The notes: generated from the sequence alone by a model not told the origin. DNA of 64,000 bases from a virus (IMGVR_UViG_3300032222_000151:32001-96000); one strand, 5' to 3'. Numbered from the stretch's first letter, positions 54,762-62,972 are shown. A program made the numbers and translations.

Positions 54762-54809
54762 TATAAAAAGTAAAACTCTCCCTAATCTACTACTTGAGAG
54801 TTTTGCTTT
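54762..54809 (-). terminator. Terminator-like hairpin ending the oxygenase operon
   Basis: AAAGCAAAACTCTC / GAGAGTTTTACTTT (13 of 14 pairs) running into a T tract. Confidence 0.5.
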
Positions 54810-55599
54810 ATGCGTACTTGTTACCTTTTGCCCACTCTTCTTTTTGAATGGCTTGTTGCCTTCTTACTTCTTTTTCTTGCTCATCCCACTTATCAAGAGT
54901 TTCTTGATCATACTCTATTTCTTCAAAATCCCAAAAAGAAACCATTGTATATCTTGTTCCATCTAAAATTTCTGTAACACCGTGGATATTTTCCACACCG
55001 CCAGGAAAAACATAATAGGAATATGCATTTGGCTTAAAGGATAGATATGGCTCGTTCCATACTGGGACTGGAACCCCGTCCATATCTAAACTGTCTGACT
55101 TTTTTCCAGAGTCTTCAACAAAGTATAACTCTCCTCCATCATAATTATCATTTAAATATAATATCCCAACATATTTGTTAATTTCAAAAGCATTTGGAAC
55201 TCCAGAAAAATCTGAATTGTCTGAGTGGGGTGAAGCAAATCCCCCAACATCCCACTTCTGTGCATGAGATGTGTTTGGCCTTACTTTTCTTTCAAAAACT
55301 AACTCTACCGCTTCCTTAAACTTTTCTCTCAGATCTTCAAAAAAGTTTCCATCTAGACCATGCTCAGCAAGACCTGGATCGTTTGGGGCTAACCCCATTC
55401 CTAATGAACCATAAAAAGCAATATCTCCCCAGTCATCACCTTTAGACTCTACATAGGAGATCATAGACTTTGCTGTCTTTTCATCCAAGAAGTTTGGAAT
55501 TTCAACAATTCTATTGTGTGTTATTCCAAGCACACCTTTTGTATTTTCTTCATCCTTTATATATTTAAAGTTTGATTTATCAAGTTTATCAATTATCAT
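54808..55599 (-). CDS. 2OG-Fe(II) oxygenase, prolyl-4-hydroxylase-like
   Basis: HSD, YLNDNYDGGELYF, HGV, RY. Confidence 0.9.
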   Translation of the reverse strand: MIIDKLDKSNFKYIKDEENTKGVLGITHNRIVEIPNFLDEKTAKSMISYVESKGDDWGDIAFYGSLGMGLAPNDPGLAEHGLDGNFFEDLREKFKEAVELVFERKVRPNTSHAQKWDVGGFASPHSDNSDFSGVPNAFEINKYVGILYLNDNYDGGELYFVEDSGKKSDSLDMDGVPVPVWNEPYLSFKPNAYSYYVFPGGVENIHGVTEILDGTRYTMVSFWDFEEIEYDQETLDKWDEQEKEVRRQQAIQKEEWAKGNKYA

Positions 55600-56437
55600 T
55601 TTTTATAGTAAGCCTTTCAACGTTATTTCTCAAATACTCTTGATTCATCTTTAAGTATTCTTCCATTTGCTTTTCTACTCTTTCTGACTCCATCTTCATC
55701 CAAAGTTCTTCTCCATACTGATCTCTTTTTTCTAACCACTCTGGATTTCCTTCAAATGGCTTTTGATAAAAACATCTAATGAGGTACTTATCTTCTTTTT
55801 CAACCTGCTTAACACCATGGAGATACTTCCCATTATCTGAGAGGAGATCTGGATGCCCTGAAGGGAAAACAAGAACATCCCCAGCAACTGGCTTATAATC
55901 TAATATTCCTTTTCCTGGAATAAGGAATGTTATATCTCCGCCTTCATAATCATCGTTTAAATACATTGTGCATGTTAGTATAAACTTATTTCCTGGCCAA
56001 TCACCTTCTAAGGTTACGTAGTCTGTGTGATAAACCATATCTAGTCCATCTCCACCACCATTTCTTTCTGAGTTTTTCCAATCATACTTAGATATAGATG
56101 GTCCCATTATTACCCAGTCATCTCCAACAGACATTCCGTGAGTTTCTAGATATGTCTGCGTAGCATAACTAAATGCATTAGTTATTTCGTCCATAAAAGA
56201 TTGTTCTTTTGCATATACATCGTTATTTAAGTTTTTGTCTTTTTCTTCTGCGCCTTTGCCAATTTCCCAAACATAAGTTCCAAATCTGCTCCACTTCTTC
56301 CAGTCTTTAAATAAAACTGAAGACTCTGGATCTTTTTCTGATGACTTAAATGTATCAACCATCTCTTTGTGTTGTGGCAACAAACCTTTGTATACGTAAA
56401 TGTTTGTATCAATTTCTGTAAATGTTACATTATTCAT
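55589..56437 (-). CDS. 2OG-Fe(II) oxygenase, prolyl-4-hydroxylase-like
   Basis: HTD, YLNDDYEGG, HGV, KY. Confidence 0.9.
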   Translation of the reverse strand: MNNVTFTEIDTNIYVYKGLLPQHKEMVDTFKSSEKDPESSVLFKDWKKWSRFGTYVWEIGKGAEEKDKNLNNDVYAKEQSFMDEITNAFSYATQTYLETHGMSVGDDWVIMGPSISKYDWKNSERNGGGDGLDMVYHTDYVTLEGDWPGNKFILTCTMYLNDDYEGGDITFLIPGKGILDYKPVAGDVLVFPSGHPDLLSDNGKYLHGVKQVEKEDKYLIRCFYQKPFEGNPEWLEKRDQYGEELWMKMESERVEKQMEEYLKMNQEYLRNNVERLTIKNDN

Positions 56438-57113
56438 CTTTACTCTTTTCCTTATGAGAAAGAATTGTAAAGAAGAATGGTATAACATATCTTATTCCAC
56501 TTTTAATCTCTGTTACTCCGTGTATATAGTTTAAGTCCCCTGGGAAAAAGTATGCAGCGCCTGCCTTTGGCTTAAACTGAATTTCTTGGTTAGGAAAATA
56601 TAACTCTCCACCCTCATACTCGTCATTTAAATAAAACAGACCAGCAATATCGTACCAAGGGAAGTCATTTGGCTTGCCAGCATCATCCCCTTCGTGCAAC
56701 TCTTTATCTGCATGAGGCATTTGAAGTTGTCCTGGTAGCCATCTAACAATTGCTGTACTGGTTGGCCAAGCATCTACTCCAAAAAACTCATCAACTTCAG
56801 ACTTTAGTCTTGCCTGTAGTTCAGTAATCATTGGATTAATCTTTACATCGTTAAGGTCTAGTGTGTTTGATGTTGCAACTCTATCTTCCCAATACTTTGA
56901 GTCATAGATCACTGTTCCTTCATCATTATAGTGGGTTTCTGTAACATCCCAAACTGATATATTCTTTGCTGCATTAGAAAGAAAATCAAGTTCTTCTGAT
57001 GTCATAAAGTTTTCTCTTGCCTGAATCATTTCAGCGCTTTTTCCAAAATAACCAGAAGGGGTTATGGAAACTCTTTCATTTGCATAATTATTAGAATACT
57101 CTACGCTTTGCAT
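56430..57113 (-). CDS. 2OG-Fe(II) oxygenase, prolyl-4-hydroxylase-like
   Basis: HAD, YLNDEYEGGELYF, HGV, RY; TGgTATAAT 6 nt upstream. Confidence 0.9.
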   Translation of the reverse strand: MQSVEYSNNYANERVSITPSGYFGKSAEMIQARENFMTSEELDFLSNAAKNISVWDVTETHYNDEGTVIYDSKYWEDRVATSNTLDLNDVKINPMITELQARLKSEVDEFFGVDAWPTSTAIVRWLPGQLQMPHADKELHEGDDAGKPNDFPWYDIAGLFYLNDEYEGGELYFPNQEIQFKPKAGAAYFFPGDLNYIHGVTEIKSGIRYVIPFFFTILSHKEKSKDE

Positions 57114-61252: not shown

Positions 61253-61973
61253 GATTTTCCTGATCAAAGTTATAAAAAAGATGCGAAGTATTGTATACCT
61301 CTGCATCAATAGAGTTAAATTCAAGTATTTTTTCTTTTTCTTTTTCTGTTAGGCTTGCATAAATCCTTGTTGAATCTGGATTCCATGAGTTTGCTCTTGA
61401 TTGTAATTTTTGATTGATTTCTGGTACTGGAATATTTAAATCAGTTAATATTTTGTTATATGCCTGTTTTGTATTTTTTAATGACAGTTCTTCAGATTTT
61501 ATTAACAAAGAGACATCCTTTAGTCTATTAAAAATAATATCTTTTGTAACAATACAATCTCTTGTTTCTGGGCTATAGATAAAACCACCTTCTACTTTAT
61601 TTATTAAAAAGTTTTTAGATTGTATATTTTTTACAGTATCGTTATTCTTTGTCATCCACTCAAACATTGTATCTTTATTGTATTCTTCTGCCCCAATTGG
61701 TATTTTGTGTTGTGCTCCGTCTCCCAATACAGAAAAATGAGAATACAAACTTACCATATATTGCACTGGATCTCTTAAAAGACTTACTACATAGGTGTTT
61801 TTATCTATAAAGTCTGCCCAGAATTGATGAGCAATATATGTATCTCTATTGTAATGGCTGTGAATTCCATGTTCTCTCATTGCTAGTGCTGCAGGAACTA
61901 CAACATTATGAGTAAAATATCTACCTGCGGTTTTTGGAACATGTAGAAAGTAGAAACTATCAAATTCTTTCAT
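61242..61973 (-). CDS. Sulfotransferase family protein
   Basis: 5'-PSB FLHVPKTAG, 3'-PB LRDPVQYMVSLY, C-terminal N..D..VY. Confidence 0.75.
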   Translation of the reverse strand: MKEFDSFYFLHVPKTAGRYFTHNVVVPAALAMREHGIHSHYNRDTYIAHQFWADFIDKNTYVVSLLRDPVQYMVSLYSHFSVLGDGAQHKIPIGAEEYNKDTMFEWMTKNNDTVKNIQSKNFLINKVEGGFIYSPETRDCIVTKDIIFNRLKDVSLLIKSEELSLKNTKQAYNKILTDLNIPVPEINQKLQSRANSWNPDSTRIYASLTEKEKEKILEFNSIDAEVYNTSHLFYNFDQENHEL

Positions 61974-62003
61974 TTTATGATAGTTCCTACTCTCTACTAG
62001 ACA

Positions 62004-62972
62004 TTACTCTGATTGTGTTTCTGGCTTTGGATCGTTGTAACCCATAGACTCTGGATTTACTCTACCCCAGTTTGATGAGAAGTATGGAGGTGGGAAGTAA
62101 GGTCCAGCAAATCTTGGTGGGAAGAACGGACAGAATGCTGGTGGGAAGAACGGACCGAATCTTGGTGGGAAGAACGGGAATGATGGACAGAATGACGGTG
62201 GGAAGAACGGACCGAATCTTGGTGGGAAGAACGGGAATGCTGGTGGGAAGAACGGTGGGAAGAACGGAAATGCTGGTGGGAAGAACGGTGGGAAGAACGG
62301 TGGGAAGAACGGTGGGAAGAACGGGAATGCTGGTGGGAAAAATGGAGGGAAGAATGGTGGGAAGAACGGTGAAGTTGTTGTAACTGAACCAGAACTTGCT
62401 GAATATACTCCATCTCCATTATCATTAACAGCAAGAACCTGATAGGTCTGAGACGTTCCAGCAGTTTCTGCAACATCATAAGTTGTTACATTTCCAACAT
62501 TATATACTGGACCATCAGAAGACTTTAACTTATATCCAGTTATAGACTTTCCACCAGTTGCTGGGACTGACCAGACAACTCTGTCTAAGTTTGCTGATGG
62601 AGATGTTGCTGAAGTAATTGATGGTTGTGCTGGTACTGTTGTTGCTGTTACTGCTGCAGATGCTGCTGAAGCAAGAGATGTTCCTGCTGCATTTGTTGCT
62701 GTAACAGTAAATGTGTAAGAAGTTGCAGATGCAAGACCTGTAACTACAATAGGAGAAGAAGATCCTGTTGCCGTAAATCCTCCAGGAGAGGAAGTTACGG
62801 TATAGGATGTCGCTGCTGGGGAATCTGCTGGCAATGTAAACGCAACGCTGATGGCTCCGTTATTATATGCACGAGATGTTCCTACATCTGTGCCTATACC
62901 AATTGTTGGTGCCTTTGGTTCCAAGAAGTCATTAGCCTGGGCTGAATGTCTACCTACTTTTTTAATTGCCAT
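62004..62972 (-). CDS. Two-FN3-domain protein with C-terminal (FFPP)n low-complexity tail
   Basis: FN3 motifs (VTGLASATSYTFTVTATNAAG, YQVLAVNDNGDG); 14 FFPP plus one YFPP. Confidence 0.85.
   Translation of the reverse strand: MAIKKVGRHSAQANDFLEPKAPTIGIGTDVGTSRAYNNGAISVAFTLPADSPAATSYTVTSSPGGFTATGSSSPIVVTGLASATSYTFTVTATNAAGTSLASAASAAVTATTVPAQPSITSATSPSANLDRVVWSVPATGGKSITGYKLKSSDGPVYNVGNVTTYDVAETAGTSQTYQVLAVNDNGDGVYSASSGSVTTTSPFFPPFFPPFFPPAFPFFPPFFPPFFPPFFPPAFPFFPPFFPPAFPFFPPRFGPFFPPSFCPSFPFFPPRFGPFFPPAFCPFFPPRFAGPYFPPPYFSSNWGRVNPESMGYNDPKPETQSE
62079..62370 (-). repeat. Coding tandem repeat, 12-bp core GGTGGGAAGAAC (+ strand) encoding PFFP, with in-frame spacers
   Basis: Directly visible in the sequence. 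Confidence 0.95.

Follow-up and report, generated by a model that had tools for sequence, protein, structure and literature searches.

Background

Genes for oxygenases of the prolyl 4-hydroxylase (P4H) type rank with the most frequent of those that aquatic viruses carry as 'auxiliary' genes, and in a Baltic Sea survey P4HA was recorded at 62% of the water stations, its viral use being described, in the part of the survey at hand, as one that 'remains cryptic' (PMC9301287). The multi-copy oxygenases of cyanophages have been given only speculative roles since 2010, as far as the available portions of the two reports go (PMC3037559, PMC2938197). In this study we investigated a window of 64,000 nucleotides (IMGVR_UViG_3300032222_000151:32001-96000), which spans bases 32001-96000 of a virus record of 118,809 bp that has direct repeats at its ends (G000 below), and in particular a locus where a protein with an FN3 domain and a tail of Phe/Pro repeats lies beside an array of P4H-type, 2-oxoglutarate (2OG) oxygenases. 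We observed that related phages conserve the pairing of such arrays with the phage-encoded Pro/aromatic repeat protein, which would offer a testable candidate substrate for these common and unexplained phage enzymes.

The P4H of chlorovirus PBCV-1 hydroxylates Pro-containing peptides sequence-specifically in vitro, according to the accessible part of the report (PMC7019647). The likeness to the present locus is that its vCPH (PDB 5c5t), which our oxygenase ox3 matches both by profile and by fold, is a small virus-encoded P4H-type 2OG oxygenase for which virus-encoded Pro-rich repeats are the proposed substrates. PBCV-1 differs in having one enzyme, against an array of 4-10 here, and its repeats are built on a PAPK motif and are not aromatic. 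A tandem array of dioxygenases in Synechococcus phage Syn9, gp41-gp54, together with a dUTPase-fold gene, was described in silico in the available part of Iyer, Abhiman, de Souza and Aravind 2010 (PMC2938197). In Syn9 we counted ten dioxygenases, two tryptophan halogenases and the dUTPase-fold gene, placed after tail-fibre-type genes; compared with our locus, Syn9 adds the two halogenases and a JmjC enzyme. The same source, in the part at hand, predicts in silico bacterial operons that combine beta-hydroxylase-type dioxygenases, sulfotransferases and collagen-like or tail-collar proteins (PMC2938197). These resemble our locus in placing hydroxylase (and sulfotransferase) genes beside a repeat or fibre substrate; they differ in their dioxygenase families, in their glycine-rich or collagen-like substrates and in lying on bacterial chromosomes, and they are predictions there too. 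Neither a family of the form FN3-(aromatic-Pro)n[-Hint] nor its pairing with arrays of P4H-like enzymes according to repeat type was found in print, supplements being outside the search, and no such module was met among the papers listed on FFPP phage repeats, on bacterial intein-like (BIL) domains with FN3 phage proteins, or on hydroxyproline in tail fibres. Further phage arrays may appear in the supplementary data to Iyer et al. 2010.

Gene content of the locus

All eleven genes were recovered, by open reading frame (ORF) listing and family scans, where an earlier reading of the DNA alone (the sequence-only reading) had placed them. They are listed here in window coordinates, together with the flanking genes; orthogroups are defined at 50% identity unless 40% is given.

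62004..62972, minus strand: protein of 322 residues with an FN3 domain, a putative second Ig-like domain and a 97-residue Phe/Pro tail (PF00041 and composition)
61242..61973, minus strand: sulfotransferase-like protein, 243 residues, weak assignment (PF00685 E 0.0044, PF03567 E 0.012)
60746..61252, minus strand, ORF open from 61324: 168-residue protein (g192), probable relative of cupin/double-stranded beta-helix (DSBH) proteins (hhalign)
60053..60745, plus strand: ox1, PF13640 oxygenase, 32 bits; singleton cluster with no orthologue in related loci
59295..59996, minus strand: ox2, core P4H-like oxygenase, 42.5 bits; orthogroup in 48 loci
58578..59261, minus strand: ox3, core P4H-like oxygenase (modelled), 48.9 bits; orthogroup in 53 loci
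57869..58633, minus strand: duf1, DUF6065 protein, PF19541 98 bits; orthogroup in 50 loci
57135..57869, minus strand: duf2, DUF6065-like protein with a dUTPase-like fold, phrog_7084 7.8e-37; orthogroup in 55 loci
56430..57113, minus strand: ox4, core P4H-like oxygenase, 35.8 bits; orthogroup in 49 loci
55589..56488, minus strand: ox5, PF13640 oxygenase, rare among relatives, 35.9 bits; orthogroup in 3 loci
54808..55599, minus strand: ox6, P4H-like oxygenase, 30.3 bits; orthogroup in 45 loci (40% identity) or 12 (50%)
63004..64000, minus strand, continuing to G000 96950 outside the window: 3' part of a 648-residue tail-fibre gene (Mtd_N E 1.8e-15; many tail-fibre PHROGs)
52680..54713, minus strand: class II (B12-dependent) ribonucleotide reductase (RNR) (RNR_Alpha 1.4e-31, RNR-II_ins_dom 6.9e-15)

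The FN3 gene indeed stands right after the tail-fibre gene, as had been proposed, and the ten accessory genes described as following without a break very nearly do so, ox1 being on the opposite strand. The island genes abut or overlap, and an operon structure is suggested by this tight spacing, which is its sole basis. The six oxygenases with an HxD...H...R/K signature and the two DUF6065-like genes are borne out by the scores above. The FN3 protein had been described as having two FN3 domains and a Pro/Phe tail of about 95 residues; its first FN3 domain is well founded (residues 38-105, PF00041 in Pfam, E 7.5e-9, 36.1 bits against a cut-off of 25), as is the tail, while the second FN3 domain is only indirectly supported, by a beta-rich region at about residues 110-200, of which residues 114-201 match Microbacterium phage minor tail proteins (tblastn, E 5e-4), and by weak PKD_6 matches in relatives.

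Within the tail (residues 200-296), 41 Pro and 38 Phe account for 81% of the 97 positions, against 7.5% in residues 1-199, and the units comprise 14 FFPP or, counted more broadly, 15 [FY]FPP. The C-terminus consists of the 26 residues after the repeat, PYFPPPYFSSNWGRVNP plus 17 residues, with the end motif PYFPPPYFSxNWG, and this C-end is common to a second fibre protein of the same genome. In a protein search, 8000 candidates were scored and 3853 of them matched at E<=1e-3, the search being biased because candidates are picked by shared words; 103 of the best 120 have a 40-residue stretch with at least 60% F+P, so that the motif is kept at the protein level.

Synteny across related phages

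Two IMG/VR scans gave 112 related loci, of which 109 have a recognisable FN3 gene; 78 of these are unique, and 56 have at least 6 kb of downstream sequence. Their ORFs were scored with hidden Markov models (HMMs) built from the 13 oxygenases and the two DUF6065 genes of the genome. The conserved gene order is tail fibre, a gene of about 150 codons, tail fibre, FN3-repeat gene, island, RNR, (oxygenase) and a 1246-residue-type gene, the RNR being the conserved downstream boundary of the island. Sorted by the type of repeat in the tail, the 56 loci are as follows.

PP-type tail (FFPP, YFPP, FCP...), 40 loci: at least three oxygenases in 38; at least one DUF6065 gene in 40; at least two in 37; family X in 0
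FGFSPF-type tail, 15 loci: at least three oxygenases in 0; at least one DUF6065 gene in 2 (L019, L039); at least two in 2; family X in 15 (1-3 copies)
Other tail type, 1 locus: at least three oxygenases in 0; at least one DUF6065 gene in 1; at least two in 0; family X in 0

The sequence-only reading had expected FN3-(FFPP)n genes to travel with P4H and DUF6065 genes, and this expectation held among the PP-type loci. The co-variation is real, and the repeat-type-specific synteny is conserved. The two PP-type loci with fewer than three oxygenases (L034 and L035) have short YFPP tails and 1-2 oxygenases. In whole records, the PP-type phages carry 6-10 PF13640 genes, mostly clustered beside the repeat gene (6 of 6 in the complete G008), and the FGFSPF-type phages carry 1-6, all scattered. 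The number of PP units rises with the number of oxygenases (Spearman rho 0.59, p 0.007) over 20 PP-type loci with RNR-ended islands, relatedness being ignored.

Judged by orthogroup recurrence, the stable core is the repeat gene with ox2, ox3, the two DUF6065 genes, ox4 and an ox6-like gene. Since the ox2, ox3, ox4 and ox6-like orthogroups and both DUF6065 orthogroups recur in 45-55 loci, this core is a stable module and not random island content. By the same measure, four genes have been added locally, namely ox1, ox5, the cupin relic and the gene for the sulfotransferase-like protein.

An FGFSPF-type tail is in each case accompanied, right after the FN3 gene, by 1-3 copies of a family of about 215 residues with invariant HDH...H...H...R, here called family X (for example L008:11304-12595 and L019:13546-16305, and likewise in other FGFSPF-type loci). 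No Pfam, NCBIfam or PDB match was obtained for it, and hhalign against the P4H-like profile gave a probability of 1.5%. Its Atlas look-alikes are clusters of PF13759 2OG-FeII_Oxy_5 (score 0.96; 79% of members), which provides a lead that family X may be an oxygenase.

A collagen-like protein was also considered as a better target of the oxygenases. All five FGFSPF-type records have the gene, against only three of the five PP-type ones, and it is missing from the complete G008; this candidate was rejected because its presence does not track the array. In G000 itself, a tail-fibre module outside the window (L081:12928-14687, G000 106928-108687) contains two collagen-like (GXY) proteins, one of them with CBM_5_12 carbohydrate-binding modules.

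The oxygenases

All six oxygenases score above the PF13640 gathering threshold of 27 bits (range 30.3-48.9). H140, D142 and H193 are invariant across the 13 oxygenase paralogues of the genome (alignment A2), and a Lys or Arg lies about 10 residues past the last His in all six cluster enzymes. A profile of the ox2/ox3 orthogroup (62 sequences) matched P3H1 (5.9e-11) and the B. anthracis P4H (5e-10) in the PDB, followed by PKHD-type hydroxylases, LH3, PBCV-1 P4H, a mimivirus-type lysyl hydroxylase and PHD2; the top of this list holds protein hydroxylases only.

The model of ox3, the sole oxygenase modelled (predicted local distance difference test, pLDDT, 93.8), is a double-stranded beta-helix like that of solved prolyl hydroxylases. 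In Foldseek its best matches were PHD2 with HIF peptide (E 1.7e-11 to PHD2), the P. putida P4H with EF-Tu, the algal P4H with (Ser-Pro)5 and PBCV-1 vCPH (2.8e-10), all of which are protein prolyl hydroxylases, with TM-scores of 0.56-0.69 to those bound to peptide. A complex prediction of ox3 (alignment A3) with tail residues 199-236 and Fe gave a score of 0.02 (mark 0.32) and speaks neither for nor against binding.

Proposed function and points against it

With the gene content, enzyme family, fold, intact catalytic residues and repeat-type-specific synteny as observed above, we propose, tentatively and with a little less than even confidence, that the Pro/Phe tail is the substrate of the adjoining P4H-type oxygenases on an appendage of the fibre region. 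The FN3 protein would be a virion component made by the phage with a tail intended for its own enzymes, and late in infection the core enzymes ox2, ox3, ox4 and ox6 would hydroxylate prolines of the FFPP/YFPP units, with hydroxyproline as the product. The four core orthogroups may differ in ring position or sequence context; a difference in ring position is proposed because the best sequence match is a 3-hydroxylase and the others are 4-hydroxylases. The hydroxyls would turn a very hydrophobic, polyproline-like stalk into a hydroxyproline-rich, soluble and rigid one, and could serve as sites for sulfate or sugar in lineages carrying such enzymes. Lineage-variable enzymes may make such additions, namely the sulfotransferase-like protein here and methyltransferase, JmjC and Asp/Asn-hydroxylase types elsewhere. 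The support comes from comparative genomics and is partial. If the proposal is true, enzymatic hydroxylation would have to be counted among the means by which phage virion proteins are known to be finished. For the substrate-plus-tailoring cassette put forward by the sequence-only reading, the enzyme type (profile and ox3 fold) and the synteny speak in favour, and a possible single switch and the linkage of tail and island speak against.

Several observations weigh against the tail as substrate. Seven further PF13640-type paralogues, with HxD...H intact, are scattered among early and accessory genes at G000 13-31 kb with no adjoining repeat protein (among them, in L082, which is G000 12001-32000: 1421-2065, 4612-5307, 5669-6244, 9289-10481, 15296-15952 and 18099-18674). 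Oxygenase arrays and the repeat protein, which the sequence-only reading had tied together, occur apart outside this lineage, as in Syn9 no P/F/Y-rich ORF was found within 7 kb of the array, the maximum being 0.37 P+F+Y in any 30-residue stretch. PBCV-1 is the one virus with a characterised P4H, and no hydroxyproline was found in its virions according to the part of the report at hand (PMC7019647). The co-variation perhaps reflects as few as 1-3 events, because in the maximum-likelihood tree of the FN3 part (75 rows) the repeat type needs only 2-3 changes, of which well-supported branches force one, and because tail and island are contiguous, so that one exchanged block of DNA could move both. 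The oxygenase HMM and the ORF calling were home-made, and divergent genes may have been missed.

These points bear on a rather unlikely alternative, in which the gap between fibre gene and RNR is an insertion hot-spot that tolerates accessory genes, and the oxygenases act on host proteins, a small peptide or a secondary metabolite, or merely turn over 2OG. The content of the gap between FN3 gene and RNR is indeed variable, with methyltransferase, short-chain dehydrogenase/reductase (SDR), JmjC and Asp/Asn-hydroxylase types beside the oxygenases, and other parts of the genome hold seven of the 13 paralogues. Among cultured phages, the nearest relatives of ox3 are oxygenases of cyanophages and Methylophilales phages, and the EF-Tu hydroxylase among its best structural matches would suit a host protein target. 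In the available parts of the sources, the multi-copy 2OG oxygenases of cyanomyoviruses are put forward as modulators of 2OG and nitrogen signals (PMC3037559), and the Syn9 array is read by Iyer et al. as one for secondary-metabolite synthesis and not for virion-protein modification (PMC2938197). On the other hand, a hot-spot does not account for core orthogroups that are stable in 45-55 loci, for the lack of the array in this gap in each of the 15 FGFSPF-type loci, where family X replaces it, or for a second Pro-tailed protein that also has a DSBH-like neighbour.

On the same side as the objections above stands the DUF6065 pair. duf1 clearly belongs to PF19541 (98 bits against a gathering threshold of 26.6); duf2 has no Pfam match and aligns with the DUF6065 family as the divergent paralogue of duf1, and 23% and 12% of the members of its Atlas look-alike clusters carry PF19541. 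The DUF6065 alignment (A4) has invariant W33, C64, G74 and D82 and a GIIDxD stretch. The duf2 model (pLDDT 92.6) resembles dUTPase 3h6x (VIA Z 8.9, root-mean-square deviation 3.5, 120 residues aligned); dUTPases or dCTP deaminases make up 20 of the top 22 rows, with Z 8.9-5.5, and below these Z falls to 4.7; Foldseek is in weak agreement with this fold. The modelled fold is thus that of a nucleotide enzyme, and it agrees with a remark in the accessible part of Iyer et al. 2010 (PMC2938197). In Halorubrum tailed virus 8 (HRTV-8), gp36 (L115:4830-5666) is a DUF6065 homologue lying between baseplate/tail genes and RNR in a region with no annotated oxygenase, and in L048 the immediate neighbours of a DUF6065 gene are the FN3 gene and RNR. 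Because of the dUTPase fold and of an RNR neighbour without annotated oxygenases in an archaeal virus, DUF6065 may be outside a protein-modification pathway and belong to nucleotide metabolism. A literature search under the name DUF6065 found nothing. The position between tail or baseplate genes and RNR in the archaeal tailed virus is also that seen in this bacterial phage.

Taken further, the DUF6065 pair, the oxygenases and the class II RNR could form a module for modifying nucleotides or managing their pool, with the repeat protein as a bystander. The dUTPase/dCTP-deaminase fold, the invariant Cys and Asp-containing GIIDxD stretch, the RNR neighbourhood and a weak, below-cut-off Tet_JBP match of ox2 (E 2.9e-4) would agree with this. 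The oxygenases, by profile and by fold, resemble protein hydroxylases most, and not AlkB or TET/JBP, and in Syn9 the dUTPase-fold gene lies within the dioxygenase array with no RNR annotated in the 14.4-kb stretch shown. We consider this explanation quite improbable.

A second Pro/aromatic-tailed fibre protein

Outside the window, the genome carries another protein with such a tail.

G000 104020-105597: fibre-type protein, 525 residues, with a Pro-rich tail of about 290 residues (tail PHROGs)
L081:7382-11597, which is G000 101382-105597: the second cassette region

This tail has ten [FY]FPP units, several PYFPPPYFSxxWGGG units, and TP and VAP linkers, and its end motif is nearly identical to that of the FN3 protein (local alignment 131, against 38 +/- 7 and a maximum of 63 in 300 shuffles). 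As the same tail and end are found on two fibre proteins, the Pro/aromatic tail is a portable module. Directly after the 525-residue gene come a DSBH-like gene (phrog_2954, 4.3e-11), an O-fucosyltransferase-like gene (weak, E 0.0017) and an NAD-dependent epimerase/dehydratase gene; thus twice in the genome a Pro/aromatic tail is followed by oxygenase-type genes, and a hydroxylation/glycosylation cassette is possible at this second locus on the sequence evidence. The matching proteins are long-tailed in two of five PP-type records, and in five FGFSPF-type records they are short (211-217 residues) and have no such tail.

A module shared in this way also fits a purely structural or adhesive role, in which the tail is an unmodified low-complexity stalk, like Pro/Thr linkers or FG-type cohesive repeats, and its C-terminal module serves attachment or processing. 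Relatives swap their C-terminal modules (Hint/BIL domains, Cys-rich ends, short tails), and the FGFSPF variants have few prolines, as such a stalk would allow. We give little credence to this account taken by itself, as it leaves the P4H array after the PP-type tail unexplained, and it is compatible with modification and not opposed to it.

A broader form of the substrate proposal, which we regard as doubtful, is that abundant freshwater phages run an extracellular-matrix-like chemistry on their own appendages. A portable polyproline/aromatic stalk, common to several fibre proteins, would be hydroxylated by a battery of specialised P3H/P4H-like paralogues that differ in position or sequence context, and would then be sulfated or fucosylated, giving a sticky or protease-proof tip comparable to extensins or mussel adhesives. 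In such stalks the 'P4HA' genes, which rank with the most common unexplained auxiliary genes of aquatic viromes, would have their natural substrate.

Other genes of the island

The gene taken by the sequence-only reading for a sulfotransferase with a PAPS (3'-phosphoadenosine-5'-phosphosulfate) motif keeps that description only in part. Its Pfam matches (PF00685/PF03567) reach 16.9 and 16.2 bits and stay below the cut-off of 22, and its homologues are sporadic, one being found by phmmer downstream of the repeat gene in 1 of 109 related loci (L016). K14, T15, G17 and R18, and R67, P69 and S75, are nevertheless invariant in 28 homologues (alignment A6). PAPS-binding loops follow the patterns PKxxGxx (5'-PSB) and RxxxxxS (3'-PB), and the invariant residues, as candidate loops, would fit these patterns. 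Sub-cut-off sulfotransferase matches were recorded for 10 and 9 of the 28 members (best E 3.8e-4 to 3.8e-3), and the profile gave no match in the PDB.

The 168-residue protein, previously called a degenerate DSBH protein, is plausibly so, though not firmly. It has 7 clusters at E<=1e-10 and no conserved His or Asp, and its profile had no match in the PDB; one hhalign match, with 79% probability, links it to a PF05118-type Asp/Asn-beta-hydroxylase-type protein at the same position in L003, and from this it is probably a cupin/DSBH relative without metal ligands.

The island of the close relative L003 (11367-13291 and 16900-17454) also holds an above-cut-off PF03567 sulfotransferase, an Asp/Asn beta-hydroxylase-type cupin, a methyltransferase and a JmjC-type oxygenase. 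BLASTP of the sulfotransferase-like and 168-residue genes against the same-position genes of L003 was insignificant, the sulfotransferase-like gene there being of a different kind. Going by the predicted content of L003, protein modification in the island would extend beyond the P4H-like genes.

C-terminal ends in the repeat-protein family

Longer members of the family (about 400-460 residues) have a Hint domain directly after the repeat, whose first Cys is invariant and which mostly finishes with His-Asn (L022:10802-11284, L002:8339-8848 and 15 more loci, by profile match to 2lwy). The Hint profile (17 sequences, alignment A5) matched the C. thermocellum BIL domain 2lwy with E 1.2e-8, mini-inteins coming next, and Pfam gave Intein_splicing in 10 of the 17 and Hint_2 in 5, all below cut-off. 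The likeness to the C. thermocellum domain lies in this Hint end and its invariant first Cys; the difference is that the FN3 protein of the window has no Hint domain. By this resemblance the Hint end of the relatives probably cleaves itself off, and the tail end could then carry a reactive thioester. In L001:4709-5611, L059 and L071, a short Cys-rich end stands instead of Hint, for example with 8-10 Cys in the last 35 or so residues, which suggests a disulfide-knotted or metal-binding cap.

A precursor of a ribosomally synthesized and post-translationally modified peptide (RiPP) was also weighed. The FN3 protein carries folded FN3 domains, and the family scans, with no dedicated search made, found no protease, cyclase or exporter among the eleven genes; nothing points to an excised product.

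Setting and occurrence

The G+C content is 32-45%. Megablast of the 8.2-kb stretch against cultured phages gave no nucleotide-level match. The class II RNR beside the island shares 62% identity with its counterpart in the metagenome-assembled Actinomycetia phage DSL-LC01 and 61% with the Mycobacterium phage enzymes; the predicted host of DSL-LC01 is Actinomycetia, according to the part of the report available (PMC10611076). Promoter-like sites in the island stretch numbered 26, against 34.9 expected from shuffling, and terminator-like sites 5, against 7.4, so no enrichment was seen.

The phage is widespread in public metagenome runs. Near-identical DNA was found in freshwater, lake, river and aquaculture metagenomes, with at least half of the sampled words of the 8-kb stretch in 17 public runs, and 12 studies account for the 20 holders of the stretch, one of which may be where the window came from. 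There is no RNA data set among the holders listed; X20 is labelled RNA-Seq and is probably DNA.

At the DNA level, the FFPP repeat is encoded by one array.

62079..62374, minus strand: tandem array with a 12-nt unit and its multiples (Tandem Repeats Finder)

In-frame 3-nt deletions were seen in metagenome contigs at 62287, 62299 and 62311. The summed contig depth over the FFPP-coding bin (window 62179-62451) was 873 in X2, 119.7 in X4, 20.2 in X6 and 2310.9 in X20, against at most 40.3, 9.9, 6.0 and 27.5, respectively, in the remaining bins; near-identical repeat DNA is common to many other phages of those four metagenome samples.

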